Below are positions 14,272 through 36,044 of a stretch of DNA of 64,000 nt, piece after piece. The position numbers and the translations under genes were made by a program. The stretch spans positions 930,001 through 994,000 of the forward strand of contig NW_027191458.1 of the NCBI RefSeq assembly GCF_011745625.1. The letters are read 5' to 3'. Every line of letters begins with the position of its first letter. Position 1 is the stretch's first letter. The notes beneath the pieces were generated by a model. The model ran no database searches. It worked only from the letters and a program-made list of their open reading frames with translations, and was not told where the DNA came from. The stretch is from Cladosporium halotolerans (taxonomy: Eukaryota).

Positions 14272-15646
14272 CTACAACTTCGCATTCCACGCCGCTCTAT
14301 CCGCCGACTCCAGCACCCGCTCCCTCCCATCCCAGAAAAGCGGGCACAGCTGGAACCACTTCTCGCGGCTGCAGACCGAGTGCACGCTGCGCTTGTGCCC
14401 GAGGTCGACGTACTTGCCGATCGTCAGCCCGACCGCGTTCTCGTACGACAGGATCGTGCCGCCCGTCGCCCGCGGCTCGCCCACCACGCTCGCCGTCCGC
14501 ACCTCGTCCAGGAAGCAGTAGTGGATGCAGCTCGAGTACCACGCGTTGACGCGGTGCGAGCCCCGGAACGACGCGTCGCCGACGAGCGAGTGCCGCCCGC
14601 GGTCGTAGTCGTCCGCTCTGTAGTGCGCGCCGTAGTGGTCCTCCTGCGGTTGGGTTAGTGGACTGTGATACGGTGTCTTCGGACCGGCGGCTTACCTTGG
14701 CCCAGTACAGCTCGTAGTACGAGAAGCGGGTGTCGTTGAACCGGCCGAAGAGGCACAGGACGTGCGGGTCGAAGTGCAGCTTGCGGAGGTACTCGCGGTG
14801 CTCGTCGAGCGTGCCGGTCTCGTTCCAGCCCTTGGCGACGCGCGGGTCGTTCTGCCACGTGTTGAACAGCTTCAGGTGCTCCGCGTCCTCCCAGTCGATG
14901 ACTTCGAGCGAGAAGTGCTCGTCGAGCTCCGGGATGTAGCGGCTGTAGCAGATGGATCCAGGATGCGGTTTGGGCTGACGTGTTGGGTGCATGGTGTAGA
15001 TCGGCTGCTCGGGGAATTTCATCGTGAATTGCTGGTGTTCGGGCATCGCTGGATACTGGGAGATGGGCTTCCTGGCGAGCCCTTGGGTGCCGTCGCCTAC
15101 GGCCCAGATCGGTCGGGGGCCTGTTGGCGAAGCGGCTCCTTGCCAGAATGCGCTTCTCAAGATCAACAGGTCGCCGTCGGCGATACCGTCATTCTGCACA
15201 GGCCGCCATGGTTGAGGGTGCTCGATTGCAAGTCCGGTGGCAAGCAGTTCTTGACGGATCACGCTCTTCCCATATCCCTCCAGAGCCAGTCTGAAATACT
15301 CGATCGTCGGATGGGCAAGATAAATAGCATGAACGACGTTCCAGATCTGGGCCAGAGATGGAGTTTCCTGGCTCGGCCATTCAAAAGTCGTCTTTGGGCT
15401 TCTGTATGCTCGGGCCCAAGCGCTGTTGTCATTGTCGGGGGGACACTGTTTGGCGGTTCGTGAAGTCAGGTCTCGCCATGAGAGCGACTCTGAATGCAGT
15501 GGTTCTGGCAAAGATGTTGTGCTGGGTGGCTGATCGTCCAAAGCCAGAACGAACTTGGCGGGCGTGACGTCCGCGTTGCATCGCACTTGATATGAGGTGA
15601 GAAACGGATGCGGCAGTTTCACCGCGGGGTATTTTTGTGGTGACAT
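14272..15646 (-). CDS. sidF: N5-hydroxyornithine acyltransferase (SidF/IucB-like GNAT), about 440 aa, ends in PTS1 AKL
   Basis: Motifs FWQGA, YSRYIP and [14 protein letters not shown]. Intron 14644-14695 joins [37 protein letters not shown]. Confidence 0.92.
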
Positions 15647-16059
15647 GATGGTTTGGCAATTGAATTGTTCTGAATATGAATTGCGATCAATGTAAGTCGT
15701 AGCAAAAGCGCAATTGGACGAAAGTGAAGAACGGGTCTTAAAGATCCGATTAAGAGACACAAGACCTAGCTGGGCCGCGGCCTTGGTCGTAGGAAGTGGA
15801 CCGGCTTGCCTACCATCCTGGGCTGCTCGAATCGCGAACCGAGCATGGCAGGTACGAAAATGGCAGCTAGTTCTCGCCAAACCCAAAATTCGAGACGAGG
15901 GCTACCGTCCGAGATGCCTAGCCTCCTCGTGGCGCCGATACCGCGGCTGGGGTGCCCTAGATGTTCCTACACCTACCAGTGCGGGCATATACGTCTTTGG
16001 CACATTTACGATCGTCTTAAAGAAACTACTCGAATTCGTTTGCGAACCATCCATTCAAT

Positions 16060-16933
16060 ATGTCTTCTGGATCGGTTCAGACCGACCACAAGAACTTCAT
16101 CGTCACCTTTCCACGCTTAAAAGTCATCCAGGTGACACTAAACAGACCGAACAAGCTGAACTGCATCGACACTGCTACGAGTAAAGAAATCGCAAAGGTC
16201 TGGGAGTTGCTCGATCACGGTGAGGATTTATGGGTTGGCATCATCACAGGAAGTGGAAGGGCTTTTTGCACAGGAGCAGACCTCATCGGTAAGCCGAACC
16301 TCCAAATGCTGCGGGCTTCCTCGGAACTGACGATGTACGTTAGAATGGAATGAAATGAACAGAGCCGGTGTAGTCAACGACATGTCGGCGCCAGGGCTGG
16401 CTGGACTCCCACGTCGTGACGGAAAGAAGCCAATCATCGCCGCGGTCAACGGAATCACCATGGGCGGTGGATTCGAGATGGTGGCCAACTGCGACATAGT
16501 TGTTGCTTCATCGGCTGCAACCTTCGCTTTGCCAGAAGTGAAGCGAGGAATCGTCCCCGTCGCTGGATGCTTGCCACGATTGACGCGGACTCTCGGTCTG
16601 CAGAGGTGCACCGATCTGGCCCTGACCGGCCGTAGCGTCAGCGCCACGACGCTGTACGACTGGGGCCTCGTCACCCGCCTAATTGACTCATCAGCCGACG
16701 TGGTCGACGCCGCCGTTCAGGTCGCAGAGGAGATGTGCCGCAACAGCCCAGACGCGCTAATCGTTGCCCGCAGAGGGATTCGGATGAGTTGGGAGACGGG
16801 CAACGCTGAAGAGGCCGTGTCGAGCTTGGCGGAACATTGGTACCCTCGCTTGGTTGAGGGGGCCAATTTTGCCGAGGGCATCAAGGCGTTCTCGGAGAAG
16901 CGTAGCCCGCAGTGGGTGAATTCCAAACTGTGA
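16060..16933 (+). CDS. sidH: Enoyl-CoA hydratase family protein, probable mevalonyl-CoA hydratase, about 272 aa, ends in PTS1 SKL
   Basis: Crotonase motifs LNRPNKLN, AFCTGADL, KPIIAAVNG..GGGFE and FALPEVKRG. Intron 16289-16343. Divergent from sidF. Confidence 0.9.
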
Positions 16934-17221: not shown

Positions 17222-17245
17222 ATCTGATTATTTTCCATCTGATAA
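17222..17245 (+). promoter_or_regulatory. SreA-type box pair upstream of the ABC transporter
   Basis: One-mismatch ATCTGATTA at 17222-17230 and exact ATCTGATAA at 17237-17245. Confidence 0.75.
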
Positions 17246-17637
17246 TTCTATCACTTCTCGGCGGCCCACCCTGGTGCCGCCATCTGTTTTAGCGCGCATT
17301 GTTCGAGGGATTGCTCCGGAGGCGCACGACTAGTCATGTCTTGCAATGCATTGACCTTCTTCGTGAGAAGGGCTCGTACGTTCAGGCAAATGGCCCACCA
17401 CCATGGCGGCATTAGCCGACCTCGGAGTGTTCTTGCTTGCTGTCAAGACTCGTCCAAGATATTGGCGTGTCGTACTAGGCCCAAGGTGAGACTGTTAGTG
17501 TTGGTCGAAAGACGAAGACTTGGACTGCTGCATGCTAAGCCGCTCCTTTCATTCATCCATCTTGGCCCTACCTCTTGGACAGCCTTGGAAGAAAGGCGAT
17601 CATCGACACGACTGATTGGCAGCCCTCTACTGCGGCG

Positions 17638-20600
17638 ATGCAGGCTGTACAGAAATTCACGGGCTACTATCGGCTGCTAGTAGCTGGCAACCCTTCGAAG
17701 ATCGAGATTCTGACATTGGTTGCTGGTGCCATTTTCTCGATAGCAGCGGGAGTTCCTTTTCCGATCATTGGCATCTTGTTCGGTGAACTCTTGGACGACT
17801 TTAATGGAACGACATGCAGCCAAGGAGATCCATCAAGCGCGGGATACCAGGGTGATATCAACGACAAGATCTTGATCATCTTCTACTTGGCAATTGCACA
17901 GTTCGTTCTGATCTATGGTCATCTCTTCTGCTGGAGTTATTCTGGTGCTAGACTCGCACAGAGACTTCGGGAGTCTTACCTGCATACTCTCTTGCGACAG
18001 GAGCCATCCTATTTTGACAACCTGCCGCCAGGTGAGGTTGCATCCCGCTTAGACAGCGATATTCAGACGATTCGATCAGGAACAGCAGAAAAAGTGGGAA
18101 TATGCCTTTCCAGCTTTTCCTTCTTCGTCACGGCGTATATCGTCGCATTTATCAAGAACTGGGAACTTGCGGCAATGCTGATCTCCTTAATCCCGGCGTA
18201 TCTACTGATGTCGTTCATCGGTGGCCACTACATTGAGAAGTACACCGGACTTATGTCAGATCACGCTGCTACCGCAGCTTCCATCGCCTCCGAGTCGCTG
18301 TCAAATCTGGTCGTAGTGCAAGCTTTTGGTGCAAATCTTCGTCTAGAGGAGAAGTTCTGCAAAGCCCTTGCAGCGTCTCGCCACGAGGGCATCAAGAAGG
18401 CCACGGCAATCGGAGTACAGTCTGGTATCCTGTACTTCGTTGCGTATGCGGCGAACGGCCTCGCGTTCTGGCAGGGGAGTCACCAAATTGCCGAAGCCGT
18501 CCGTGACAGCACGGGTGGCACTACAGTCGGAGCTGTGTTCACTGTGATTTTCATCCTGGTCGAAGGTCAGTTCTTTCCACAAGCCTATCCAACGCAAGCT
18601 AATCAATGTGCAGCCACTCTACTTCTGAGCCAGGTTGCTCCCTTCATTCATCTTTTTGCGGCCGCGGTCGGCTCATACGAGAAGTTGAGAGTCGACATGG
18701 ATCGACAATCTCTCATCGATGGTACCTCGCTTGAAGGTGTTCGACTCCCGAACCCTGAAGGCAAGATTGAGTTCAAAAATGTTTCGTTCGCCTATCCTTC
18801 TAGGCCGGAGATCACAGTCCTCGAAGAATACAATCTTGAGATCCCAGCCAACAAGCACACCGCTCTGATAGGTCTTTCCGGTAGCGGCAAGTCGACCATT
18901 GCTGGGCTCGCGACCAGACTATACGATCCAAACGAGGGCCAGATTCTCTTCGACGGGGTGAACATCCGTGATCTCAATGTCTTCGATCTCAGGAGCTCTA
19001 TTAGCTTGGTACAACAAGAAGCTCCGCTTCTCGACAGATCACTATTGGAAAACATTGCACATGGCCTAATCAACTCCAACTCCCCGGAGCACGCAGATGT
19101 CAAGGCCACATTGCTGGGTACGGATCTTGCAGATGTAGCTGCGGATGTTAGAGATGGTCAAGACCTTGAGATATCGGCAGAGAAACGTGGACCGATCGTT
19201 CTCAAGATCGTCCACCTGGTGCGAAAAGCAGCGACCCTCGCAGATGCGGATGACTTCATTCGTGCGTTGAAGCAAGGGTATGGCACGGCTGTAGGTGCCA
19301 GTGGACGCCTCATCAGCGGCGGTCAGAAGCAGAGGATCGCTCTTGCAAGAGCCCTCATCAAGGAGCCCAGAGTTCTCATTCTCGATGAAGCCACAGCGTC
19401 CCTCGACTCTAGAAGCGAGCAACGAATCCAACGGGCCATCGGAAACATCTCCAACGGTCGTACCATGATCACAGTGGCTCACAGACTTTCCACCATCACG
19501 CATGCGGACAACATCGTCGTGATGCAAAAAGGCCGACTTTTGGAACAAGGAAGCCACGCCGAGTTGTTGGCTCGTAACGGCGCCTATGCGGACCTCGTGA
19601 AGTTGCAGACCCTAGGAACGGCGTCTTCGAGCGACGGAACGACCAGCGAGAGCGAGACTGTTGCAAAGTCTGAGCCTGTTGCCTCATTGAGCTCGCTTAA
19701 CGAGAAGACTGAACACGTAAGCGAGCATCAGGTGGACAACGAAAAGAAGGAAACTGCTAGCAATAAAGACGAATCTGCAGATGCTGAAGAAGATGAGCCT
19801 CCTTCGCCTAGAAAGTCTATTTGGGCGCTGGCGAAAGGCTATGCACCTGCTTTGAGGCCTCACACGCTGGTCATTTTTGTCGCACTTCTTGGGTCAGTAG
19901 TCGTCGGCGGCGCATTTTCCGGCGAAGCGGTCATCTTTGGTAATACCGTGGGAAGCCTGAACCCGTGTAAGACTCCTGGTTTCATTAGGTCCCACGGAAA
20001 CCTTTTCGGGCTGATGTTCTTCGTACTTGCGATCATTGAGTTTTTCGCCAACTTGATCAGCTGGTCCGGATTTGGATGGACGTCTGAGCGTCTTGTCTAC
20101 ACGGTCAGGGTTCTTTCTTTCCGGTCACTCTTCGAGCAGGATCTTGAATGGCATCAGTCTGAAGGGCGGACGCCTTCAATGCTCTTGTCCTACATTACTC
20201 GCGATGGTAATGCTCTTGCAGGTCTGAGCGGATCTGTCCTCGGCACCTTGTTCTCCATCACCGTCAATCTCTTCGCCGCCATTATCTTGACCCACATTGT
20301 TGCCTGGAAGATTGCTTTGGTCTGCTTGTCCTTGGTTCCGCTGCTCCTAGGATGCGGTCTCATGGAACTCAACGTTCTCGGAAAGTTCGAAGAGAAACAC
20401 GAGACTGCGTGCACCAAGTCTGTAGCGATTGGTGTGGAGGCTGTCACTTCTATCAAGCTTGTTGCTGCACTTTCCTTAGAAGAGGAAACCCTGGGCACAT
20501 ATAAGAGATCTCTGGTCGGCCCGCGCAAGGAAACGTTCAAGGTTATTCTGCAAGCTAGCTTCTGGCAGGCAATGACTTATTTTCTCGGCAACTGCGTGAA

Positions 20601-21639
20601 TGCACTTTCCTACTGGTGGGGAGCAAAGCAGATCATCGCTGGAAACTATACGCAGACTCAGTTCTTGATCGTTGTCTTCTCTCTCCTGGTCGGTGCATTG
20701 CTTTGGGCACAGATGTTTGCTCTGGCGCCTGAGCTGTCCAATGCCCGAGGTGCAATGGCAAGAATTCTGAGCTTGATCGAGATCGGATCTGACGGTATGA
20801 GAGGTCATGTTCCCGACCCCAGCATCCAGCCGCGCCTTGAAGATAAGGACGTGGAGGCTGTCGCTGAGTCAAAGCCTGTCCACCTTTTTGATGGCCGGCC
20901 ATCTGGCGTCCAGTTCTCGAATGTGCACTTTACCTATCCCGCCCGCCCGGACTCTAAGGTTCTGAACGGTCTAGATATAAACGTTCAGCCAGGTCAGTTT
21001 TGCGCCCTAGTCGGGCCAAGCGGCGCTGGGAAGTCCACGATCATATCTCTCATCGAGCGCTTCTATGTGCCGCAGTCTGGCTCTATCCTCGTCGACGGTG
21101 TCGACATAACCAAATTCCGAGATGTGTCCTTCCGCGATGCGATTGCTCTAGTACCTCAAGAAAGCGTACTGTTCGAGGGCACCGTCGCATTCAATATCGG
21201 CCTGGGCTCAAGGCCATCGCAGGAGGCCACCATGGACGAGATTATCGAGGCTTGCAAGCTGGCCAACATTCACGACACCATTAATGATCTACCAGATGGC
21301 TACAATACTCTCTGCGGGCCGAATGGTAGCCAGTTCTCCGGTGGACAGAAGCAAAGACTTTCCATCGCCAGAGCGCTCGTCCGCAAGCCTAAGCTGCTCA
21401 TCCTTGATGAGTCGACTAGCGCTCTTGATGCAGAGTCTGAGAAATTATTGCAGGATAGTTTGGATCAAGTTGCGAAGGAGACAACTGTGATTGCTATTGC
21501 GCATCGTCTGCGCACTATTCGAAAGGCCCATATGATCTTCCAAATCGAGGCTGGCCAGTGCCTGGTATCTGGAACGCATGAGGAGTTAATGTTGAAATCG
21601 GAGACATACCGCGAGAACGCGATGCATCAGACAGTATAG
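17638..21639 (+). CDS. Full-size ABCB/MDR transporter, probable siderophore exporter (SitT-like)
   Basis: TMD-NBD-TMD-NBD layout with Walker A GLSGSGKST and GPSGAGKST, signatures ISGGQKQR and FSGGQKQR, and Walker B ILDE. In-frame 48-nt intron 18566-18613. Start uncertain: ATG 17638, or ATG 17403 via a possible intron 17486-17582. Confidence 0.93.
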   Translation: MQAVQKFTGYYRLLVAGNPSKIEILTLVAGAIFSIAAGVPFPIIGILFGELLDDFNGTTCSQGDPSSAGYQGDINDKILIIFYLAIAQFVLIYGHLFCWSYSGARLAQRLRESYLHTLLRQEPSYFDNLPPGEVASRLDSDIQTIRSGTAEKVGICLSSFSFFVTAYIVAFIKNWELAAMLISLIPAYLLMSFIGGHYIEKYTGLMSDHAATAASIASESLSNLVVVQAFGANLRLEEKFCKALAASRHEGIKKATAIGVQSGILYFVAYAANGLAFWQGSHQIAEAVRDSTGGTTVGAVFTVIFILVEGQFFPQAYPTQANQCAATLLLSQVAPFIHLFAAAVGSYEKLRVDMDRQSLIDGTSLEGVRLPNPEGKIEFKNVSFAYPSRPEITVLEEYNLEIPANKHTALIGLSGSGKSTIAGLATRLYDPNEGQILFDGVNIRDLNVFDLRSSISLVQQEAPLLDRSLLENIAHGLINSNSPEHADVKATLLGTDLADVAADVRDGQDLEISAEKRGPIVLKIVHLVRKAATLADADDFIRALKQGYGTAVGASGRLISGGQKQRIALARALIKEPRVLILDEATASLDSRSEQRIQRAIGNISNGRTMITVAHRLSTITHADNIVVMQKGRLLEQGSHAELLARNGAYADLVKLQTLGTASSSDGTTSESETVAKSEPVASLSSLNEKTEHVSEHQVDNEKKETASNKDESADAEEDEPPSPRKSIWALAKGYAPALRPHTLVIFVALLGSVVVGGAFSGEAVIFGNTVGSLNPCKTPGFIRSHGNLFGLMFFVLAIIEFFANLISWSGFGWTSERLVYTVRVLSFRSLFEQDLEWHQSEGRTPSMLLSYITRDGNALAGLSGSVLGTLFSITVNLFAAIILTHIVAWKIALVCLSLVPLLLGCGLMELNVLGKFEEKHETACTKSVAIGVEAVTSIKLVAALSLEEETLGTYKRSLVGPRKETFKVILQASFWQAMTYFLGNCVNALSYWWGAKQIIAGNYTQTQFLIVVFSLLVGALLWAQMFALAPELSNARGAMARILSLIEIGSDGMRGHVPDPSIQPRLEDKDVEAVAESKPVHLFDGRPSGVQFSNVHFTYPARPDSKVLNGLDINVQPGQFCALVGPSGAGKSTIISLIERFYVPQSGSILVDGVDITKFRDVSFRDAIALVPQESVLFEGTVAFNIGLGSRPSQEATMDEIIEACKLANIHDTINDLPDGYNTLCGPNGSQFSGGQKQRLSIARALVRKPKLLILDESTSALDAESEKLLQDSLDQVAKETTVIAIAHRLRTIRKAHMIFQIEAGQCLVSGTHEELMLKSETYRENAMHQTV

Positions 21640-21795
21640 AAATACATAGTAGATAGTGTCCAATTTCTGCGAACTCATAACATGTACATGATCAAGTCTG
21701 ATCCCTCAGTCTCCAAGGTTGAGATTTATACGATATTGGGGAAAATTTGTTCCAATGTGAACATACTTATCTTAGAAAGCTATGGAATCGGCAGC

Positions 21796-24700
21796 TTATA
21801 TCTTCAATACAGACTTCGGATCTGCCACCTCCTCAAAGACACCAGCAAACTCTTCCAAGATGGCCTTGACTCTCGCCGAATCTCTCTCGCTCCCAACGAC
21901 ACCCACGTGCATCTGCCCTTCTTTGACAAATGTGACGGCCTTGAAAGGGTGCGCCGCGTCTCCATGAGGGAGCAAAATGTCCACCTTACATGTACCGTCC
22001 GCGAACGGCATAGTGTCAAAGTCTTCAAAGTCCTGGTGATGGACGATAGAGTCGTAGAAAGACGCATTCGGTGCCCAATCAGCGCAATTCGTCGCAATCT
22101 GGCTGAAACCGAGGAAGTCATGCGCTGCCGACTCAGCCATTTGAGCCTGCACGGAGCGCAGCAGATCTATGGACGTCCACTGATCCTGCAGCTGGACACG
22201 GACGGGAATGATGTTGTAGCAAGGTCCGACGACTCCTTCGACGTTGTCCAGGTCAATGTTGCGGCCAGAGCTGACGGCGCCGAATGTCACGTCGGACGTA
22301 CACGTCTGGCGAGCCAGAAGTAACGCCCAAGCCGCGCTCAGCAAATTTGAAGTTGTAATTTCGGTTGGTCGGTCCGAAACGATGACCTGCCTCGACAGGA
22401 ACAGGCCGCGATCGGTCACTTCCTTTGAAGTGCCTCCCAGGCGAGTCAAATGTGAGCCTTGTAGTAGCCTTCTCCAATATGACTGCGCAGCCTCAAGTGC
22501 ATTTTGATGGCGAGTGGCAGCGACGTAAGCTGAGAATGGCACAAATGGCGCGATCTTAGAACCAGCGTATAGATGCTCGAAGTCTTGGAGTAACCTTGGA
22601 AGAGAAACACCATCGTACTGTGCATGCGAGAGACGAACAACCAAGCCAATACGGCCCTCGTTGTCTTCAACCATGAAAGCTTTCAGGAAAGGCTCTTCTA
22701 GCGTGAGTTCGGACTCCGCGTCATCATTGCAAAGCATATTGATGGCTTGCTCCAACGGTTCCTCAGCCTTGTAATGGGACAAAGTCCCCTGGAGCTTCTT
22801 CAGGACCACCTGGAAATAACTCGATTCGTGCTGAACAAACACAGTGCGGAGTATGTCGTGTGACTCAACAAGGCTATCGTACGACTTGATCAGCCGCTCT
22901 CGATCGATATCGTTCTCAAAGCACATCATGGTGTACTGAACAGAGGTCCGCGGCTCACGAATAGTCGCCCGAACATCTAGTGACTGTAAATCCGTTGTCG
23001 GCAAGACGTCCAGGATGGCCCAATTTTGGTCAACGAGTTTCGGCTGAATATGACTGGAAACAAAGTATTCAGCGTTAGAGACAGCCAATGTGGAGTATGG
23101 CTTGTAAGTCTTCGCTTGCGCTTGCGGGACCTTGTTCACTTTCAAAACCCGTGCGGCGTCGCTCAGGCGCATGTTTTGGAAGATGTCTGCCACGGTCAGG
23201 CTGTGTCCCTGTGAGCGAAGGTTGGAAATCAACTTCATCGCCAAGACAGAGTCACCGCCGAGGCGGAAGAAGTTGTCATCAACGTCTATTTGCTCCGCCG
23301 GGATTCTCAGAACTTCCGACCAAGCCGACCGGAGGATATTGGCCGGGCCACTAATGGTGGCGTTCATAGCACTGCTAGACCAAGCTTGTTTGAACCCTTC
23401 ATTCAGCTGCGCAAGATCATCAGAGGAGAGGCTCGCTGCCAACCGGTCTAGACAAGCACGGTCTGGCTGTCCGATCGAGTCTGAAGGGATGCTATCAACC
23501 ACGGCATATGCCAACGGCAACATGAAGGATGGCAGTGAGTCTCGGATGAATTTGTCAAAGCGCTTCGTCGCAGCGGCGAGATTCACGGATATCAATGCGC
23601 AGATCGTCGTTTGACAGCTTCGGGGGCTAGCATCCCCGCAAGTCAGATCCTTTGGCTGGTCCAAGAGCTTTAAGGCGTTGTCCTCGAAGGGCGGTTGTTC
23701 GATGAAAAGGACGGGACCAGTCGACGATGCGAGGGCTTTCTCACCAGCTGCTCGGTGGATGACCGTGGCAATGACGCGGGCACTAGGCGGTAGATGCACG
23801 GAAGCATGAGCCTCAAGTTCCGCGACATCGACGGTGTGGCCTTCGGCGGAAAGGAATTCGGCCTTCCTGCCCACAAAGGTCAAGCTACCATCGGCTTGCA
23901 ACTGCACGAGATCTCCAGTTGACTTGATAGGGGATGATCGGCCTGGACACGAAGGGCTTCCTGCCAACAACCACGGGGGTGACGGTTCAGTCGTTCCATG
24001 AAGGAGAGACCCTTCAAGCCAAAGCTCGCCAACAGTACCAATTGGAGATAGCAGTGCAGTATTTTGTGGATCACAAACCCACGGTACCAACGCGCGAGGG
24101 TACTGTGATCCTTGCTTGGTGGAGTTGCTTGCTCGAATTGTGTCCGTTGAAGTGTCGAGCTCAATCGGCGGGTCCTGATTCCAGAGCCACAGCTGTTCTA
24201 ACTCCGTCGCAGGCAGGCAAGACACCTCACTGACAGGCTTTGAAAGATCTTGCACGATTTGCGAGCATGCGTTTTCAAGTTGTGCGAGTACTCGTTCCAT
24301 TTGCGCAACTGACACCAGGTCTTTGTCGAAACTTGCACAGACTCGGAAGCCATCGCTCCGGATTCCGAATGCCAACATCAATGGGTACGGGTTGAAGTGC
24401 AAAGCCTCGCGCACAGGATCACCCTTCGCAAAGCCAAGCTCATTACCATCATACTCAGGCTCCGGCTGGATGACCAGACCTGTGCCGGCCTCGCAAGCGT
24501 ATTGCGCATCCGTGCTGACCTTGCGAATGTTCTGCATACCCATATGCTGGTACGAAATTCTGGACAGAACGCCTTGCTGCACCGCTTGTAGATACGCGTG
24601 GACGGACATGGTGCGGCGCACTCGGATACGCATCGGTATCGTCGCGATCATGGGACCTACGATGCTTTCGGCACCATGGAGGGGGATGTCTCTGCCTGTG

Positions 24701-27700
24701 AGAGTCTCACCAAAGACGACATCATCACTTCCGGTGTACTGTGAAGCCACAAGGGCCCAGGCGCCACGAATGACGGTGGCTTTGGTGAAAGGGGAGCAAT
24801 CGCTTGCATTGAGTGGAATGATCCTCTCTACCATGCCGTTTGGCGTAGGCATGTAGTCCCGAGTGGGGAGTCTTGGGAATTGAGATCCCGTCGCACCGTT
24901 CAGCTCTTGGCGCCAGAATTCGTTCATCGTTGCGGCATCGACGTTTCCGAGATATCGTACGAAGTCTTTCATGTACGCTAGTGGTTCGCTCTGGTGATCT
25001 TGCAAGTAGTTGCGCAACTCTTGTAGAATGATGGGCTCAGACCAGCCGTCATATAAGACGTGGTGGACTGTCCAAACCATGTATCGCTGGTTTGATTTGC
25101 CGTCTTCGATAACTGCGTAGCGAGCAAGCTCCTGGCCCAATTCTGACTTCTTCTGAAGATCTTGTTTCAGGTATTGTTCCAAATCTGTCGCCAAAGCCCA
25201 TTCGATGCCCTCGCTAAGGACTACCTGCTGTAGACCAGGCTCCTGCAATTGGGCTAAGCGGGTGCGCAAAATCGGGTTCGCTGCCACGACCTTTTCCCAC
25301 GCATTCTTCCAAGCCTGGGTATCAATATGTGAGGGAATCTTTGAGATCCGTTGAGCAATATATGCTTCGTTAGATTTGAGTGAGAAGGTGAAGAGAGACT
25401 CTTGTGTTGGCGTGCAAGGGTAGATGTCTTCGACAGCAGTGGGCTCCAAACCGCAGGCTTGAGCAGCTTCGATGCATGCATCTTCAACAGAGCGACTGAT
25501 CATGGAGAACGCGGGCATTTCCTCGCGATAGGATCCATCGCATAGCCGCACAACGCTGGCCATTCCAGCGAGCGTAGGGTGGTTGAAAGTGTTCATTACC
25601 GTAGCTTCGATGCCAGCGTCGCGGCAAGCGGATACCATCTTCATTGCGGCCAAGGAGTCACCGCCTAGTACGAAGAAATTGTCGCCTGCGCCAACAGCGC
25701 TTTCGTCAAGCTTGAGTATATCACACCAAACCCTCCGCAATCGTGACTCCATCTCGTTCAGCTCCCGAGACTCCGTTGCGGTTGTCGAAGACCCCTGATC
25801 AAGCTGCTGGAGATCAACCGTCGCTCCGAATTGTCTCAGCATCTTACGATCAGTCTTTCCCGAAATCAAGACGGGAAGCTTATTGACAGGAATATATGCG
25901 GTCGGGACCATATACCTAGGGAGGACCTTTGAGATCTCTGTGTTGGCTTCAGCTAAGGCGCTGCGTACGTTCTCGGGGAGCTCCACAGCTACAATGTCAC
26001 CTTGGGTCGATGCATTGACGGATTGAAAAGTGACAAACGCCACCAAGGTTGACTGTCCACCCATGGAGGCAGGCTTGATGACCTCAGCGATGACGGTCGC
26101 GTCTGAAGGAAGACGAGCATTCAGCTGACTCTCAATCTCACTGAGCTCGACGCGCTGACCTCTTAGCTTCACCTGGGTATCCTTTCGTCCAGCGAAAACG
26201 ATTCCTCCAGATCCATCGGGGTCGTACTTGCCGAGATCTCCGGTTTTGTAGAGTCGACCCTTGCGGCCCGTGTGCCCTTTGTGGCCAGCAGCGAGCCACC
26301 TTGGGTCCTCGATGAAAGCAGCAGCTGTCTTTTCTGGATCATTGAGGTAACCTTGCCCAACAATCGGGCCCTCTACTAACAGCTCACCCACAGCGCCGAC
26401 GGGCAGGAGGACTTCGTGGTCATTAGGATCAACAATCCACATTGCGGCACCGTTACCAGTTCCAATGGAGATGTAGGGTCGGCCAGTAGCGGTGTCGCTG
26501 TTGATAGTGCATCCGATCGTGCATTCACAGGGCCCATATCCGATGACGATTCTGGCGCTTTTGCCCCAGAGAGCAACATCACTAGCCGCGGCTGCCTCTC
26601 CGCCGAGTCCCAAAGCTTCGAGAGAATCAATGACGTCTGGCTCTAATATACGAGCAAGCGAAGGTGTAAGGCCAGCATAGTTGATCTGCATCTTCCGGAT
26701 TGCGTTGTTAATGTCATTCATCCTGTCTTCGTCAGATGGAATGCACAGACAGCCACCGTTGCCCAGAGTCAATAGCATGCTATCGATGCTAACATCGAAA
26801 GCATATGAGGCGAAGTCGAGCACTCTCGATCTCTCCGTGTATCCAACTGCCTGGGCTCTAGGTAGTGCACTGCTGGTATACGTTCGGTGCGAAATTTTGA
26901 CACCCTTCGGCGTTCCAGTACTTCCGGATGTGAAGATCAAGTACATGAGCGCAGTTGGTGGGACAGCATCCAGCTCCGGTGACGCCTCTACGTCCGCTGA
27001 CGATTCGAAAGCACCGGCTTCTATTACCAATAGGCTGCCTTTGGGAAGGATGGTTTCAGAAAAGCTGAGCTGTTGGCGAGACGACAGCATTATTCTGGCG
27101 TTGACCTGCTGCGCCATATTCTGAAGCCGAGCCAGGGGAAGAGATGGATCCATCATGACTAGAGTGCCTCCTGCCTTCATCACTGCTAGTACGGCGACAA
27201 TGGTCCATCTTGACTTTTCGAAGCAAAGCGGCACAAAGTCATGCAGCTTGACTCCTTTCTCTAGAAGACGTTTCGCGGTAATTGTGGAATAATTGTCAAC
27301 TTGGCCGTATGTCAATTCTCCATCCCAGGAAGAGATTGCCACTTTAGACGGGAAAGAGCGTGCCTTTTCGGAGATCAGGTCGTGCATGCAAAAGTCGTGT
27401 GTCGGGGGAAGAGTGTGATTCCAGCTCCAAATATCGTCCAGATCTTGGACCGTGGGCTTGATGATTTCCTCGATGGTTGCATGAGGCTTTCTTATGCATG
27501 CTTCAATAGTCTCAACCAGGACGCCCATCAGTCTGGACACCGTCCACTGAGGAATGTTGTCTGTGCTGAATAAAGGTTGGATGCAAAGCTTGCCGGCATC
27601 AAGCCGTAGGCCGTAATGAACAATTCCCTTTCCACGTCCCGTTAGTTAATTGCAATTTTCTCATTGACCAGATGCACACCTACCTCGTCCTTTGCTTGGT

Positions 27701-28079
27701 CAGATGTTTGTGACAGAGATCCGCTACTGAAGTATAACGAAGCAGGCTCTGCCATCTGAATTTGCTGGGGCTTTGTGATTGACGGAATCATTCCAGAGAG
27801 ATTGGCTGTAGCCTGTCCAGCATGACTCTGCATCCCAATCGTAACATCGCCGGGAGACAAGCTCCTGATCGAGTCTACGTTGCTCAATACAGCAGATGCG
27901 TCATTGTACTTCCATTCGAAACGGACTTGACTGCTTTCTTGTATCCGCAGAAGGACGATGAGCCATGAGATCAGAAGGAGTTCATCCCGCATGCCGGTGG
28001 GCGTGGCGCAATTGTCTGGCGCCAGGCCAGCGATTTCAAACCGCCTGGCTTCCATATCGCCGGCTCCAGCGAACGCCAT
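21796..28079 (-). CDS. NPS6: Extracellular siderophore NRPS (NPS6/SidD type), A-T-C-degenerate A-T-C, about 2075 aa
   Basis: A-domain cores YLIFTSGSTGTPKG, GYGPCE, GELLVEGP, YKTGD and QVKLRGQRVELSEIE. T domains FFVLGGDSL and FFRLGGDSV. C domains HHVLYDG and SHAQYDG. Exon 1 (28079-27684) joins in frame across intron 27628-27683. Confidence 0.92.
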
Positions 28080-28839
28080 ATTCTTCAATGTGAGTTGTCT
28101 CTTGTCATGCGTGCTTGTTGCAGCATGCGTTGACCAGTCGTCTCGGGAATATTCTGTTAGTACATGTAACGCAAGGGAACGGTAAACGAGTAACAATCAT
28201 AAGCTCGAGTAACACATCACGGCAGTACCCGAGGCACAGGTCCAGTAGCTTAGCCTACCTCACGACTACAGAGCATGGAGACTTGCCTGGCCGATGTCGC
28301 CGACACACAACGTCCAAGGCGACGAGGGCGAAAATAGCCGCGTCCGAGAAGTGACAGTGGCACACACGAAGGGCCAACTCGTGCACAAGACGGCGTGGCA
28401 CCGCAGACGCACGCGCGAAGGCTAGGGCATGCCCTGGACGAGCCACGCATCTGCAGCTAGTGCAAACCGCCATGTTGATGGGAACGTTGGTCTTTGCCAG
28501 TGAGAGGCCAAAACACGGAGTCGTGCGGCAGCGTCGAAGTCAGCGGCCTCTCGGCTGCGACGCGGCAAAAATAATCTGATCCGAGCGAGCCCTGCGCCAA
28601 GAGGAAATCACCCCTGCGAAGCTAATAATAAGGCAGACTCCACAGACAACGACAGCCACAAGCAGACATGCAGACTCTAGTCAACAGTCCGAGCTCCCGT
28701 GTGAGGTGTGGAAAAATTTATCAGACCATCTGATTGACGATGCCCAATGTAGACGTCGGCCGAGCGCCATGGCGTGCAACGTCGCACGGCAGACTTCGCC
28801 CTTGTGCGCGCTAGCCGCTGGTAGCGAGGGCTCAACAAA

Positions 28840-28848
28840 ATCTGATAA
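28840..28848 (+). promoter_or_regulatory. SreA-type box in the divergent NRPS/esterase promoter
   Basis: Exact ATCTGATAA, with near matches at about 28572-28580 and 28718-28736. Confidence 0.75.
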
Positions 28849-29170
28849 CTGCTCTGATCCATCTTATCATTTTCATTTGTCCAGCATTACAAGGATGCGG
28901 GTCTCTTGGGTCCGTCAAGTCAATGCTCGATTGCATCAGCCGAGGTCGGGAGCGCGAGCGTAGGCTTGTCGCCAGAGCTACGATGGATGGCGGTGTCGTG
29001 ACACTTGCAGCGCTTGCAAGCCCTCCTCCAGTCCGTCAGAGCGCGTTCGTACGCAGGAGGTCGCAGGAAGTTCTCTACGTGACACGGCGTTGTTCAGCAT
29101 TGGTCCCAGTCATCTGTCACTGCGAGCGAACAGCCGACATCCTCCCACGTGACCGGATCTCACAGACATC

Positions 29171-30312
29171 ATGTCCAAGTTCTGGCCCAAAGGTGGTCTC
29201 CCTGGCATCCTTCATCATTATGTATGTATCTACGGTCTAGCTAGCTCAAGCTTACGTTGCTGATGATTTCGTTGTAGGCGGAGAGTCTTGTGACCTTCGA
29301 GTATACCGGAAGCACGGTCCGCAAGCCTCACAGCCTACTGTTTGTCGGAGGCTTGGGCGACGGCATAGCGACGACTTCATACATGTCCTCATTGGTCTAT
29401 GCACTGCAGCCCACACAATGGTCTCTCTTCACCATTAACCTGTCGTCGTCGTATCAAGCGTGGGGTCTTGGCCATCTCGACAGAGACACTACCGAAATCG
29501 CGCAATGCATTGATTATGTCAATGAGTACAAGCAAGCAAAGTTCGGTGGCGGCAAGATTGTCTTGATGGGTCATTCTACTGGCAGTCAGGACGTTCTCCA
29601 CTATCTTTACAGACCTAATCCCCACAACAGCATACCTGCCTTTGACAAGGACCTCCAGCATCGCAAGAGGCCTGTCATTGACGGTGCAATCATGCAAGCT
29701 CCAGTGTCAGACAGAGAAGCGATCCACTGGGTTTTGGAGAAGGGCTTTGCCGGCAGATCTCCAAGTGATTGTCGCGCGGCATATGACAAGCTGATTGCTA
29801 TCGCACAAGAAGCAGCGAGTCAGGGCCGAGATTGCGATACTTTGCTGCCTTTGGAGACTACCTCAGCGCTGTGCTACCCAGCCACTCATCCCATCAGCGC
29901 TCGCAGATTTCTAAGTCTCGTCAGCCCGGAGAGCCCTCAAGCTCCCCAGGAGGATGACCTTTTCAGCTCCGACATCAGTGATGAGGAGTTGGACAAGACC
30001 TTTGGCATGATCCATCAACAAGCACTGCTCAGATACAAACTTCTGGTACTACCTTCAGGGTCAGACCAAGCAGTTCCTGACTGGGTCGACAAGAACGCAG
30101 TTCTTGCGAAGTGGAGGAAAGCTGTCGATCGAAACGGTCTATCACAGATCTGGGATGCGGAGAACAGCGGTCCTGTGCCAGGTGCTTCGCACGCACTGAG
30201 CAATGACGATCAGGAAGGGCCAAGGCAGTATCTCGTCGAAAGGGTTCAGAACTATCTGAATGGGCTCGAGCGGGCGCTATTACCTGCTTCGACAGAAGCA
30301 AACACATCATGA
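29171..30312 (+). CDS. sidJ: DUF1749 alpha/beta hydrolase, SidJ-like siderophore esterase, about 361 aa
   Basis: Exon 1 MSKFWPKGGLPGILHHY, then intron 29222-29277, then LLFVGGLGDG, nucleophile motif MGHSTGSQD, QAPVSDRE and GASHAL. Confidence 0.8.
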
Positions 30313-30636
30313 GACAACGGCAGCGTTCAAAGATCACAATGGAGCCTCTTCGTCTCGTCAAACTCGTCCCCTTTGAGCCAGCAATTTCTAGCGCAATCGT
30401 TCAAACCATGTGATCGAGTCGGAAGTAAGTTCTTCCTGGCGATGTCTTGGGACGAAGAGGTATCCTGCTCTCACGTTCTCGGGCATTACTCAATGCCGCA
30501 ACGATCGACAAACGTATGGCATGACATGTGAATCGTGGGCCTTGGATGGTCAACGGCCTCGGCTACAAGAGGATCCGTCGACCGTTGGAAAAAGCCGGCG
30601 GATGTGCCATGCGTCCGCTTCTGGGAACGCCCCACA

Positions 30637-30886
30637 ATCTGATAAGATTCAGCCTTCTCGTGTTCGTCGACTAAGAAGATAGCGTGCAAGGGTCGCCCGG
30701 AATCTCGGACAAGCTTTGGCGCAAGTCTTGGTCTGGCTTCTCGGCCGCGATCCACAGGCAAGGCTGGGCTTCAGCGCCATTCCCGCAGCCAACCCCCAAA
30801 CCAGCAGCCAAGCAGCGCTACTGCACCGAGGCCGTCCAGCGAGTTTTCTTTCTGCAAACCCTAGATGAATGTAATTATTATCTGAT
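30637..30886 (+). promoter_or_regulatory. Two SreA-type boxes upstream of the SidA-like gene
   Basis: ATCTGATAA at 30637-30645 and TTATCTGAT (reverse complement of ATCAGATAA) at 30878-30886. Confidence 0.75.
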
Positions 30887-31318
30887 CATCTGATGTGGGC
30901 CCCGATGTCGCTCCCATACCAAGCCGCGCGCGAGGATGGAGCTACGGCTCCTCCAAGCCACGTTCTGGTCGGTGAATGCCGCATAACTCGGCGGGGTCGG
31001 AATCGTGCGAGCCATATTGAATCATGCAGCAGCTGAACTTGCAACGTGGGTGATCCGTAGCGAGACTTCGTTGGGTGTAAGCCGCGCAAGGCTAAGTGTG
31101 CACTGTTTGGCATGATGGCAGTCAAGTCCCAAAGAGAGAGCCCGGTCCCTGGGCACGCAGCGGATGGGCGGTGTTGTACCAGGGCACACAAGGGTCGATT
31201 TACATGCTCGGACGATTCTTCTTCCGTCGATGCAACCCGCGGAAACGCTTACTTGCAAGCATTCAGACCTGTCGCCTTGTAGCCGGAGTTCACTTTCATC
31301 ACATCAATTGTCGAACAA

Positions 31319-32802
31319 ATGGTTTCTATCACTGCAAACATGGAATCCCACGGCGACGGTCTGTCAAATTTCGATTCGAGTGGTACAGATCATTCAACGA
31401 CGTACGACGTTGTCTGCATCGGTTTCGGTACCAAAGGCCTGGCTTTCACTACCGTACTTGCCGACCATGACCCTTCACAGAGAGTCCTTGTCGTTGAGCG
31501 AGACAGCCGCTTCAACAATGATCTGGGTTTCGCGGCTGAGGATGGTTCTGCTGGTTCTACTTTCCTTCGGGACCTGATCACCCTTCGCAACCCGCGCTCA
31601 GAATTCACGTTCGTCAACTTTCTGCACGAGACGAATCTCCTGGTCGCTTTCACCAATGCATCGCAGCTCACCACGTCGAGGCGGCTGACAGCTCGCTATA
31701 TGGCATGGGTAGCCCAGAAGATCGAGCAGCTTGGCTGGGTGAGCTTCAACAAAGAAGCTGTCAACATCAAGCCGACCAGCATTGCCGCCAATGGCCAGGT
31801 CACTAGGTGGACGATTGATCTGAGAGCTAGTGGCACCGGAGCCGCGTCGAAAGTCAGCTGCAAACGCCTCATTGTCGCCACTGGAGCTCAGTCCCGGCTT
31901 CCCAGGTCTCTCGCCTCCCCAAAGCTCTCTTCAAACGTGCTACCGTTGAGCAAGTCGGCGGAGCTGTTGAAGAGGATTCACAATGCTGATCGGGCACTCA
32001 GCATTGCGATTATTGGTGCTGATCAAGAAGCTGTTGAGCTGTTTGAGCACTTGATCTCGGCTCCTGGCCAACACCGTGCCACCATGATACTAGCAGGCTC
32101 TGCTCTGCGTGTCGAAGACTGCACTCCATTGTAAGAACCGAACAAGGCACCTCTAAACCCGATCCAAGCTGACAACTTTAAAGTACACAAGAGATGATCG
32201 ATGGAGCGAACAACACATCCCTTCACCATCTCCCACCTGAAGTCAGGCAAAGGATGCTCGCAACTAGTGTGGCCGCCGAGTTTCCCACCGTGGACCTGCA
32301 CACTCTCGAGGCCTTGTACGTCCTTCTCTACACTCAGCATATCCAGCAGCACGACAAGACGCAGCACCGCTTCCACCTTAAGCCGCACACTCGCATCAGC
32401 GGAGCTCAGCTGCAAGACGCAAAAGTGCAGCTTACTGCCAGCGACGTCAGGTCACACGCGGAGACTCAACTTCCCGACCTCTACGACTTCGTCATCGCAA
32501 CGACCGAGCGCGAAGCCCTCCCCGGTAAGCCTCTGCTGGCTCCGCTCTCCCGAATGTTCGATTCCGGCAACGGATCCTGGACTGTTGACAGCGGCTACAA
32601 AGTCAACTTCCGAAGGAACGTTCTGGCCCCTGGTTGTGGTCTGTGGGTAATGGGTACTCTCACCGACCCGAAAGTGCGACGCGACAACTTCAGCGTCCTC
32701 TCCGCCAGCGCAGGCCGCGCTCTGGAAAGCATGCTTGAGGTTGCGCAAGTCGGAGAGACTGAGGAGTCGGCTTCGAAGTATGGTCAGCTTGCGATGTTGT
32801 AA
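31319..32802 (+). CDS. Divergent L-ornithine N5-monooxygenase (SidA)-like protein, about 476 aa, with degenerate catalytic motifs
   Basis: YDVVCIGFG, FLRDLITLRNPRSEFTFVNFL, IAIIG, VDSGYKVNF, CGLWVMG and C-terminal LAML follow the SidA scaffold. Intron 32131-32183 joins the two ORFs in frame (DCTPF-TQEMID). Confidence 0.85.
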
Positions 32803-33007
32803 GGAGTTCTTTTGGCAAACGTGTATGGGTGTTCCGGTGTCATTGTCTAAGGGCCTAGAGGTTATCAAGGAATGAATGATCAGATATTCAAGGGAAATTG
32901 CTTTTCGCATGGTTCGTTCAGTACCTCAAATCACAACCAAGAGACGGTACGATCTCGAACGTCCACTCAATAAACCTGTATGTCGTAGATGCGAAAAAGA
33001 TCTACAA

Positions 33008-34784
33008 CTAAAGTTTCGCTCTGGGTTGGCTCAGCAACTCCTGTCCAATCTTCTTCATCTCGAATTTCTTGATCTTCCCACTTCCTGTCACCGGAACCTC
33101 TGCAGTCACGCCGTCCTCGCCAAGCCAGAAGACATGCACAGGTGTCTTGTGTCTGCCGAGCTTCTCCCTTGTCCAGGCCTTGATGGCATCTATGCTGGGC
33201 TTCTCAGCATTTGCAGGCCGCTGCAGGAAAGCAGCAACCTTCTCGCCGTATTTCTTGTCGGGCAAGCCAACAACAATGGCACGGTCGACAGCTTCGTGTT
33301 CGACCAGTCTCTCTTCGATCTCGAGTGGGTAGATGTTCTCGCCTCCGCGGATAATGATGTCCTTGAAGCGGCCTGTGATGGTGCAATAGCCGTGGCGGTC
33401 GATGAAAGCTTCATCACCGGTGTGAAGCCACAGCACCCCGTCTGCATCACGTCTCATCGCTTCGTCTGTTTTCGCCTGATTGCGCCAGTACCCTTGCTGC
33501 AACTGGTAGCCGGCGATGCACAGCTCGCCGCGGGATCCTACAGGCAGGATGTTCCCGTTGGCATCCACGACCTTGGCAGAAGCATGAGGCATCAGAGTGC
33601 CGACTGACGTCAGACGACGGTCCATGGTGTCGTCGACGAAGGCATTGAAGCAAGTCGGCGACGCTTCGGTCAAACCGTAGCTGCTGGTGAACTCAGTCAT
33701 ACCAAACTCATTGACGAGCAGCTCCATCAGGTGACGCGGGACTGGGGCGCCTGCAATGATGCCCGTGCGTAGCGCGCTGCAGTCGAAGCCGGTGGGTCGA
33801 GGAAGGCTGAACAGAGTGTCGAACATCGCGGGGACTCCATGAACGGCAGTGCATCTCTCATCTGAGATAGCGCGAAGAACAGCGGGTCCATCGAAGATCT
33901 CCGCGGGATAGACAATCTTTGCCCCATGGGTAATTACGGCGAGAAGCCCGAGTACTAGTCCGAAGCAGTGGAACAGGGGTGGCGGACAGCACAGCACATC
34001 CTTTTGTGTGAGGCTCATGCGGTCGCCAATGAAGCGTGAGTTGTTGAGTAAGTTGTGCTGTGTCAGCATGGCGGCCTTGGGGTGGCCTGTGGATCCGCTG
34101 GTGAACTGCAGGTTGCATGTGTCGAACGGGCTGACAGCCGCTTGAGCTGCAGCTAACGGGTCTGCTGGAAGGCGAGTACCAACATCAATGACTTGACGAT
34201 ACTCTGTCAGGCCATCCAATGATCCAGACAGAAGAACAATCTGCCCAAGTGCAGGCAAATCTTTTGCTGCCCGGCTGAAAGCCTTCAGCATGGATGTGTT
34301 GTCGGTCCGGCCAATTTTTGCGGTTGCAAACAATATTTTGCATTCTGTCTTTGGCATTAGCAATCTATTTAATTCAGGTCTTTCAGAATCCAGGCTTCAT
34401 ACCTGCATACTGCAATGCGTACTGTGCTTCGGCGGAAGTGTACGTGTTGTTCAGGATGACCAAGATCGCGCCGATCCTCATACAGGCAAAGAATACGGAC
34501 GCGTACTCTACACGGTTTCCAGCTAAGATCGCTACACGATCTCCGGATTTGATACCATTGTCGAGCAGATATCGAGCAAGATAGATGCTGTGTTGCTGGA
34601 GATCATTGTATGTCCACCGCGTTCCGTCCCAAGGTGTCACAACGGCCTCATCGTTGCCAAAGTGAAGACACTGGTAATCCAAAAAATCCGCCAATGTCAC
34701 ATCGAGCAAAGGCGGATTCTGTAGTCCATGGAAAACCGAGAGCGCGGTAGAACCGTTGTCCAAGTCGTTTGGGGGCGTCGCCAT
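33008..34784 (-). CDS. sidI: Acyl-CoA ligase, probable mevalonyl-CoA ligase, about 572 aa, ends in PTS1 AKL
   Basis: Motifs LQFTSGSTGHPK, PPLFHCFG, YGLTE, HTGD, GRFKDIIIRGGENIYPLEIE and TGSGKIKK. Intron 34345-34402. Confidence 0.9.
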
Positions 34785-34831
34785 GATGTTCTGTATTGAT
34801 GATAGATCTACTGACGTCCGTCAACCGACGG

Positions 34832-35321
34832 ATCAGATAAGAACTACAGAAGGTACACCACGTGCCATGGCTCCTAGCAGACCTCTCACCGAGACCGGTC
34901 CGTCGCTAAGAATCGACGTAATCCCAGAGAGCTGGGGCCTCGGCGAAAGGCGGCATGCCTGGGTCGAGAGGCAGGTTTGAAGGCTTCGAGGGCTTGGACC
35001 CCTGCCCACTCGTTGGGGTCCGTTTGCAACCCTACATGAGTAGCATGCTGCCTCGGGACGACTACGACCTGACGTGGCATGATCGCGGCACCAACGCGGT
35101 ATCGGTGCCCGGGCACGTTGCTTCTTTGATCAGCCACCACTTCTTGTCTTGAGTGGCACTCGGACGTAATGCTTCAGCTTGGCTAAGCGAGGGCTGCAAG
35201 AAACAAGCCTTACCGAGCAAACTCGCGTACTTGGCCGCATCTTGCGCCTTCTTGGTTCTCGCCCGGTGGAACTGCAGTGGAGTCCGCATGAGCAAGGGTT
35301 GAAGCTCGGTGATTATCAGAT
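34832..35321. promoter_or_regulatory. Two SreA-type boxes upstream of sidI
   Basis: ATCAGATAA at 34832-34840 and TTATCAGAT (reverse complement of ATCTGATAA) at 35313-35321. Confidence 0.75.
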
Positions 35322-35553
35322 TGATAACTTTAATTCCTGTCGCGCTAGGAATGCACTGGCCATGTAGGGCATCGTATTTGGCGCCGCGCCGGAACAAGCA
35401 GGAAGCCGAAGTGGAAACATCGCATAGCCCAAGAACTGGAGCTAGTTGATGGTGCCGAGGAATTTTGGTCATGACGGGCTTGAGCGATTTGAGAGTTTAC
35501 AACGAGGGCCCAGCGCGAGATTTTCGAGTTGGAAAAACCCTCATCCCGAGCTG

Positions 35554-35584
35554 TAGGGTTAGGGTTGGGGTTAGCTTGGGGTTA
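35554..35584 (+). repeat. Short degenerate telomere-like (TTAGGG) tract
   Basis: tagggttagggttggggttagcttggggtta. Confidence 0.4.
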
Positions 35585-36044
35585 CAATTGCATCTCATTC
35601 ATCGCACGTCAACCACATCTACGAGTGCTCCGGCTAGTTTCAAAGGATTCAAAAATCCCTCTGTAGTATTATGGTAATAGTTTTGGGAATGCTGAACCAC
35701 CTGCGCTGTCTCAAGGCGGCATTCAGATGAATCAAGCGATCATGTCTCTTCGATCATTCAAGAGTTCAATAATGCTGGATTGCACGGTTGCACCCCCCTT
35801 CAAACGCCGCACAACCGCACAAGCACCCTGATCTCATTGGAAACCGTTGCGCAATCCCAAGTTGACTGTGTCCTTCCGTTGTCAACGTTCCTTGAGATCA
35901 GGCTTATCACTCTCTTCATGGTATTGGAGTAGTCAATGTACAACGGCTATCCAACAACGGGCCCAAGATCCACGTTCATTGTAATAGCAATGGAAAAGAA
36001 AAGGACTGCCATACGACCACACAACAAGCAAGGTCAAGCCGAAT

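Follow-up and report, generated by a model that had tools for sequence, protein, structure and literature searches.

All hydroxamate siderophores of fungi depend on SidA for their committed step. The subject here is a SidA-like gene of Cladosporium halotolerans (31319..32802, + strand), found in a stretch of 64,000 nucleotides (nt) of contig NW_027191458.1 (RefSeq assembly GCF_011745625.1, positions 930,001 to 994,000), called the window throughout. Its product of 476 amino acids (aa) is moderately likely to be a maintained, non-hydroxylating accessory paralogue of SidA, probably non-catalytic, as judged from the residues that remain. Genes in comparable positions have been described before; all papers given by PMC number are cited from excerpts of their text. 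In Cladosporium sphaerospermum, two putative ornithine monooxygenase genes are reported: UM843_7304, clustered with an esterase, SidD, SitT, a dehydratase and SidF, and UM843_8412, where an ABC transporter lies between the gene and a ferrichrome-type non-ribosomal peptide synthetase (NRPS) (PMC4886633). In Cladophialophora carrionii, sidA1 adjoins sidC, sidA2 (CLCR_02414) belongs to the sidD cluster, and the possession of two sidA genes is called common (PMC10382037). UM843_7304 and CLCR_02414, each with a separate SidA by the ferrichrome NRPS, share with the present gene a neighbourhood of monooxygenase, esterase, SidD, SitT, hydratase and SidF. They differ in being treated as working ornithine monooxygenases, missing motifs going unmentioned in the excerpted text. 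By gene order and genus, the SidA-like gene would be orthologous to this cluster-embedded ‘SidA2’, annotated earlier as a second ornithine monooxygenase. A limited literature search, pairing pseudoenzyme with ornithine monooxygenase or siderophore, returned no description of degeneracy in SidA2; the only related paper was that on C. carrionii sidA1 and sidA2.

The Pfam family PF13434 (Lys_Orn_oxgnase; L-lysine 6-/L-ornithine 5-monooxygenase) matches exon 1 with 142.2 bits (E 2.9e-41) and exon 2 with 31.2 bits (E 1.6e-7), both above its curated cut-off of 21.3 bits. The best sequence matches of solved structure are chains of Aspergillus fumigatus SidA (exon 1, E 5e-27; exon 2, E 1.1e-5), and a search with exon 1 among longer proteins gave no match. 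The fold was modelled, from a 50-sequence alignment, on P0182, a database protein of 458 aa that is the nearest full-length orthologue, with 83% identity over exon 1. The model of this close orthologue (mean predicted local distance difference test score, pLDDT, 84.3; predicted template modelling score, pTM, 0.80) has the three-domain SidA fold, with SidA 4b63 as its top match in the PDB (template modelling score, TM, 0.83; 26% identity), and on this model the SidA fold is intact. A. fumigatus SidA (4B63 and related entries) and the 476-aa protein have in common PF13434, the GxGxxG motif for flavin adenine dinucleotide (FAD), Glu83, the 105-125 segment and Ser469. They are unlike in that identity is only about 26-27%, that the C. 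halotolerans protein carries a Gly-Trp insertion and a C-terminus resembling a type 1 peroxisomal targeting signal (PTS1), and that its gene lies inside the SidD cluster and not beside a ferrichrome NRPS. The bacterial enzymes PvdA, KtzI, IucD, DfoA and DesB are of the same family and fold and, unlike the 476-aa protein, all retain the second dinucleotide loop.

In A. fumigatus SidA, according to a review, Ser257 binds the pyrophosphate and Arg279 the 2′-phosphate of reduced nicotinamide adenine dinucleotide phosphate (NADPH), the K107A substitution abolishes hydroxylation, and N293, N323 and S469 bind ornithine (PMC7347517). Lys107 contacts the carboxylate of ornithine. Equivalent residues of the 476-aa protein were taken from HMMER alignments to SidA chains 4b63 and 4nzh, whose numbering was checked by Gln102, Lys107, Arg279, Asn323 and Ser469 falling at their literature positions. 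The NADPH loop G253-S-G-Q-S-A258 reads G233-A-D-Q-E-A238 (32015..32032, +), with Asp for the second glycine (Gly255) and Glu for Ser257, so that the fingerprint GxGxxA/G with its serine is absent. The basic residue for the 2′-phosphate is also absent, Arg279 being replaced by Ala259 (32093..32095, +). The ornithine-binding set Lys107, Asn293, Asn323 and Ser469 reads Arg84 (31568..31570, +), Gln273, Glu303 and Ser441, the serine alone being kept. In addition, W90-H91 is Asn-Asp and M101-Q102 is Ala-Gly. Class B N-hydroxylating monooxygenases bear the motif D-x3-[LF]-A-T-G-Y; here the sequence departs from it as D-F-V-I-A-T-T-E-R, SidA A404-T-G-Y407 becoming T-T-E-R (Gly406 is Glu379 and Tyr407 is Arg380). 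The flavin side is better preserved. The FAD fingerprint G46-F-G-P-A-S51 has become G35-F-G-T-K-G40 (31421..31438, +), which still fits GxGxxG/A, and the acidic end of strand 2 is there (Glu60, equivalent to SidA Glu83). A preliminary description of this DNA had listed these motif changes against Aspergillus SidA motifs; the HMMER alignment reproduces all of them, the residues not being conserved. Its change of GFGPAS to GFGTKG stands as a change and falls as a loss of the FAD motif. As read from the alignment, the NADPH-binding residues are lost, the ornithine-binding ones other than Ser469 are lost or changed, and the FAD motif is changed, not lost.

The same losses characterize a clade of fungal paralogues. 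An exhaustive profile search yielded 876 relatives (E ≤0.001), among which 154 proteins of 400-560 aa, joined by four spliced models, formed the tree set of 158 (longer proteins and short, exon-only calls being excluded), aligned with fast MAFFT and placed in a tree with FastTree. The clade that holds the 476-aa protein has 34 sequences (support 0.996) and is sister to 67 canonical fungal SidAs; the other 57 sequences are further family members. The closest named proteins to the 476-aa protein come from Cladosporium species. Named clade members in the Dothideomycetes belong to Cladosporium, Zalaria, Aureobasidium, Neodothiora, Lecanosticta, Elsinoe, Sphaceloma, Venturia, Tothia, Microthyrium, Rhizodiscina, Lophium and Paraphaeosphaeria, and in the Chaetothyriales and relatives to Exophiala and Phaeomoniella. 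Residue counts were made on 27 clade members after removal of seven near-duplicates. Lys107 is present in all 67 canonical SidAs and in 55/57 other members; it occurs in none of the 27 paralogues, which have Arg (16), Gln (4) or other residues (7). The second loop glycine (255) is likewise found in 67/67 canonical SidAs, in 7/27 paralogues and, counted together with the first as GxG, in 55/57 others. Three further positions are invariant or nearly so in canonical SidAs and depleted in the clade, namely Ser257 (67/67 against 2/27, with Glu in 19), Gln102 (67/67 against 3/27) and His91 (66/67 against 2/27). A basic residue (K or R) at 279 falls from 66/67 to 3/27, and Asn293 from 64/67 to 0/27. 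Asn323 falls from 64/67 to 3/27 and Gly406 is kept in 16/27 paralogues, both read from alignment columns (near 323, 406-407 and 469) that are the least secure. On the FAD side of the same 27 sequences, Gly46 is found in 27, Gly48 in 24 and Glu83 in 23.

The clade is not uniform. A degenerate subclade of 16 members has Arg at the Lys107 position in 16/16 (Arg84 here) and Glu at the Ser257 position in 15/16 (Glu237 here). The dinucleotide loop is degenerate in the subclade of the 476-aa protein (support 0.99) and again in a group with Venturia, Tothia and Rhizodiscina. A subclade with Exophiala, Phaeomoniella and Lophium retains GxGQxA, and its Exophiala members (Chaetothyriales) differ in this from the 476-aa protein. 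Pocket positions vary across the clade, that of Asn293 being Q, H or R even between close orthologues. Such variability at flavin-side and substrate-side positions argues against a new conserved active site. The Gly-Trp insertion (residues 139-140, nt 31733-31738) is shared by at least 90% of the 16 sequences in the degenerate subclade and is matched by gaps in 97-99% of canonical SidAs.

The gene is nevertheless maintained, as its structure, transcript and evolution indicate. It consists of two exons. Exon 1 (31319..32130, +) runs from the ATG at 31319, placed by sequence reading and stop-to-stop frames, through residues 1-270 and two bases of codon 271, and encodes the FAD fold, a segment of the substrate domain and the degenerate NADPH loop; exon 2 (32184..32802, +) encodes residues 271-476 and the stop codon. 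Between them lies a phase 2 intron of 53 nt (32131..32183, +; GTAAGA...CTGAC...AG). A 1,215-nt contig of metatranscriptome run X15 maps to 31251-32130 and 32184-32518, joining 32130 to 32184 and skipping exactly the 53 intron bases with their GT..AG ends; a contig of the DNA-like run X4 is continuous across the intron. Contig coverage also gives a minimum 5′ untranslated region (31251..31318, +), within which no ATG lies upstream of 31319. Runs X16 and X17 gave short contigs within exons only, with no junction, from which no conclusion was drawn. Being contigs, these data attest the existence of a spliced transcript and say nothing on expression level.

Orthologues came from a metagenome scan with peptide patterns, in which 80 of 227 loci were kept. 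Four orthologous loci (L001-L004), 72-79% identical in exon 1, have open frames and a product ending in MAML. The position of their intron is identical to that of the C. halotolerans gene and to that in a canonical SidA gene of the same metagenome (L017), which fits an old duplication. The intron is not universal in the paralogue clade, for a relative at 44% identity (L005, 202-1641; loop GANQEA, C-terminus AMI) is a single open frame without it. Ratios of nonsynonymous to synonymous divergence (dN/dS, by NG86) range from 0.086 to 0.202 over all ten pairs. Synonymous divergence (dS) is saturated (1.7-2.0) in pairs that include the C. halotolerans gene, so weight is placed on the pairs among L002-L004: 0.106 for L002-L004 (dS 0.37), 0.150 for L002-L003 (dS 0.63) and 0.147 for L003-L004 (dS 0.62). 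The gene is under clear purifying selection and is not decaying. Constraint is strongest in residues 226-275, around the altered loop (78% of sites invariant in five sequences, dN/dS 0.00-0.08), and loosest in residues 276-370 (dN/dS 0.10-0.71).

Upstream of the gene are two SreA-type GATA boxes, ATCTGATAA (30637..30645, +) and ATCAGATAA (30878..30886, -). The extended box ATCWGATAA occurs eight times in the 64-kb window, against 0.45 expected and with 0/100 shuffles reaching eight, and all eight copies lie within cluster intergenic DNA (17015-35321). At least one box also stands some 300-600 nt upstream of the orthologue in each of the five loci with at least 300 nt of upstream DNA (L001, L002, L003, L006 and L007), L004 and L005 having too little for the check. 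These promoter boxes make the gene a predicted member of the SreA-repressed iron regulon. A T>A difference at 30883 in the X4 contig concerns the W position of the box at 30878..30886 and leaves the consensus intact. The preliminary description had held that the gene looks maintained, on the strength of a full-length frame with no stops, a canonical intron and two upstream SreA-type boxes. Frames and the X15 splice joint confirm the first two, the boxes are where it saw them, and intact orthologues, dN/dS of 0.09-0.20, splicing of the RNA and conservation of the boxes uphold the general claim.

The neighbouring genes make up a complete fusarinine-type cluster, as read from the sequence. They comprise a SidF-type N5-hydroxyornithine transacylase (14272..15650, -, the upper coordinate being approximate), a SidH-type enoyl-CoA hydratase with an ECH_1 domain (16021..16933, +, 5′ end approximate), a SitT-type ABC transporter (17539..21639, +), a SidD/NPS6-type NRPS (21796..28196, -; SIDD_N, AMP-binding, PP-binding and Condensation domains), a DUF1749 protein taken as a SidJ-type esterase (29278..30312, +), then the SidA-like gene, and a SidI-type acyl-CoA ligase (33008..34786, -, 5′ end read from sequence). 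The order SidD-SidJ-SidA-like gene-SidI is kept in L001-L003, and relatives at 40-41% identity have SidJ upstream (L006) or SidI downstream (L007). The cluster (14000-35500) showed neither a SidG-type acetyltransferase nor a siderophore transporter of MirB/MirD type; SidG is absent from C. sphaerospermum too (PMC4886633), in agreement with the cluster content here. The nearest gene of the major facilitator superfamily is at 56639-58071. The idea that the SidA-like gene substitutes for a missing SidH was rejected because an ECH_1 gene ending in SKL is present at ~16021-16933. Just past the SidI promoter, at the right cluster edge and before an amino-acid transporter gene, lies an interstitial telomere-like stretch, TAGGGTTAGGGTTGGGGTTAGCTTGGGGTTA (35553-35585). 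A different linkage of SidA to fusarinine genes is seen in a long fungal contig (L009; 9836-11344 and 16382-17467), where a fully canonical intronless SidA is ~5-6 kb from a SidI homologue of 55% identity.

The C-terminus deserves separate consideration. SidF, SidH and SidI of this cluster end in AKL, SKL and AKL (the last at 33008-33016, -), a canonical PTS1 on all three. The SidA-like protein ends in Ala-Met-Leu (32791..32799, +), a PTS1-like tripeptide that departs from the canonical (S/A/C)(K/R/H)(L/M) and fits the relaxed form [SA]x[LMFI]; AML is found in all five orthologue models. After dereplication by the last 40 residues, 26/30 clade members end in [SA]x[LMFI], against 5/67 canonical SidAs and 2/57 others, and five of these 26 have canonical PTS1 tripeptides (ARL in three, SRL and ARM). 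The tail had been regarded in the preliminary description as kept from SidA, which does not hold: 0/67 canonical fungal SidAs end in AML, and the ending is a trait of the paralogue clade. Peroxisomal targeting of the 476-aa protein may be considered a lead, not a result. In A. fumigatus, SidI has an N-terminal type 2 signal (PTS2), and a PTS1 form has been reported for Sordariomycetes (Gruendlinger et al.). The N-terminus read for the present SidI-type ligase shows no PTS2-like nonapeptide. A gene for a RING peroxin of the Pex2/Pex12 family (47563-48969, -) lies about 13 kb from the cluster, probably by coincidence.

If the 476-aa protein does not hydroxylate ornithine, another enzyme would have to. 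Separate SidA genes of this kind are those reported by the ferrichrome NRPS in C. sphaerospermum (UM843_8412) and next to sidC in C. carrionii (sidA1). Named canonical SidAs also exist alongside the clade member in Rhizodiscina lignyota (P0310 with P0011) and Lophium mytilinum (P0300 with P0054). The canonical gene of L017, with the arrangement NRPS, ABC transporter and SidA and with all canonical motifs, comes from the same metagenome as L001-L004; it was rejected as the canonical sidA of the same organism, being of Alternaria type with 99% identity. No canonical SidA of Cladosporium type was found in the 80 of 227 loci of the scan, which is uninformative since the peptide patterns could miss such a type.

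Several lines converge on an early loss of ornithine hydroxylation in a protein kept for something else. The intact fold and the FAD fingerprint, combined with acidic residues at the place of the NADPH pyrophosphate, point to it, as do the single ornithine contact left and the pocket positions that vary in the clade. Purifying selection, iron boxes, a spliced transcript and the conserved place in the cluster speak for retention in another capacity. On this reading the 476-aa protein would perform no NADPH-dependent hydroxylation of L-ornithine; that reaction would fall to a canonical SidA whose gene adjoins the ferrichrome NRPS at another genomic locus. Its role would be an accessory one in making the extracellular siderophore, and its most likely place of action would be the peroxisome, beside SidI, SidH and SidF, with entry via the conserved C-terminal [SA]x[LMF]. 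It would act by binding a protein or a ligand through segment 82-113, which is strongly conserved, and through the remodelled region of the GADQE helix, rather than by catalysis.

Part of the evidence weighs against this proposal. The catalytic loss is deduced from sequence motifs, and the fold model is that of orthologue P0182, not of the spliced 476-aa protein itself. Some of the substitutions are mild: K107R and N293Q are conservative changes and Ser469 is still there, which leaves room for the binding of an amino-acid-like ligand. R279A SidA still works, having lost its coenzyme preference (PMC7347517), which means that the Arg279 change alone is not disabling. Constraint is relaxed relative to the neighbouring genes, the L002-L003 dN/dS of 0.15 being two to five times that of SidJ (0.037), SidI (0.029) and SidD (0.085), a difference that is silent on what function is left. 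The tight constraint on the remodelled loop region would also be in keeping with a new site for a cofactor or a substrate. The ending AML agrees with no more than the relaxed rule [SA]y[LMI], which comes from plants (PMC3487989). Finally, papers on Aureobasidium melanogenum speak of one functional ‘sidA’ and, in the excerpts, do not say which gene is meant (PMC8313269).

Among the alternatives, the one that survives best is an active flavoenzyme with new chemistry, although on balance it is unlikely. The protein would bind FAD and leave NADPH unused; its target in the peroxisome would be an intermediate of the cluster's pathway, derived from ornithine or mevalonate, on which it would act as oxidase, dehydrogenase or non-redox flavoprotein. 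Retention of the FAD GxGxxG and of Glu83 speaks for it, and Arg at the Lys107 position in 16/16 and Glu at the Ser257 position in 15/16 of the degenerate subclade have the look of gains rather than noise. Constraint in the protein, moreover, is highest in the remodelled loop region, and the PTS1-like tail would suit an oxidase forming H2O2. What speaks against it is that positions 101, 102, 293 and 323 have no conserved derived state across the clade, position 293 differing among close orthologues, and that W90-H91 and ATGY are lost as well in the subclade of the 476-aa protein. Besides, the known fusarinine pathway contains no unassigned redox step, SidH being present in the cluster.

The accessory, probably non-catalytic paralogue can be given a more specific mechanism, which in that precise form must be called quite unlikely. 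It would be a pseudoenzyme adaptor, a dead SidA paralogue that has kept the SidA fold, its oligomer surfaces and a weak PTS1, and it would assemble with canonical SidA and/or SidF to draw the supply of hydroxyornithine into the peroxisome, by piggyback import or by substrate hand-over.

It is improbable that the protein is still the cluster's own N-hydroxylase, acting on ornithine or another amine with its reductant bound in an unusual way. The gene does occupy the SidA slot of an otherwise complete cluster and is annotated as an L-ornithine N5-monooxygenase in genome papers, at least in their excerpts; GxGQxA persists in a sister subclade (Exophiala, Phaeomoniella and Lophium), and R279A SidA retains activity, again as excerpted. 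Against this stand the Asp at the second Rossmann glycine and the Glu at the pyrophosphate serine, which would oppose dinucleotide binding in a family where GxG is kept in 122/124 members outside the clade. Lys107 is found in 0/27 clade members while K107A kills hydroxylation by SidA, according to the excerpted work, and Gln102, Asn293 and Asn323 are lost too. Hardly credible is the view of the gene as a functionless, decaying leftover of sidA duplication, for which the many missing catalytic residues and a dN/dS above that of neighbouring genes could be cited, but which is contradicted by five intact frames at 68-78% identity to the 476-aa protein with conserved intron position and C-terminus, by dN/dS values of 0.09-0.20 across orthologues, not near 1 and with no frameshifts, by a cluster position conserved down to about 40% identity, and by spliced RNA and conserved upstream iron boxes, so that simple decay is rejected.

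The C. halotolerans gene, a SidD-cluster copy of the kind that genome papers count as a second ornithine monooxygenase, is devoid of residues invariant in working enzymes, and so is the whole clade. If the accessory, non-hydroxylating reading is right, automatic function annotations of such clusters would be wrong, and models of the siderophore pathway in many plant-associated and indoor moulds would lack a component that is non-catalytic or catalyses something different. The clade would then offer a natural series from flavin monooxygenase to pseudoenzyme, with the NADPH loop intact in Chaetothyriales and degenerate in two branches of Dothideomycetes, and a peroxisomal tail would link SidA2 to the known peroxisomal part of the pathway. 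Were the adaptor form true, a non-catalytic subunit, annotated as an enzyme in many genomes of Dothideomycetes and Chaetothyriales, would control part of the siderophore output.

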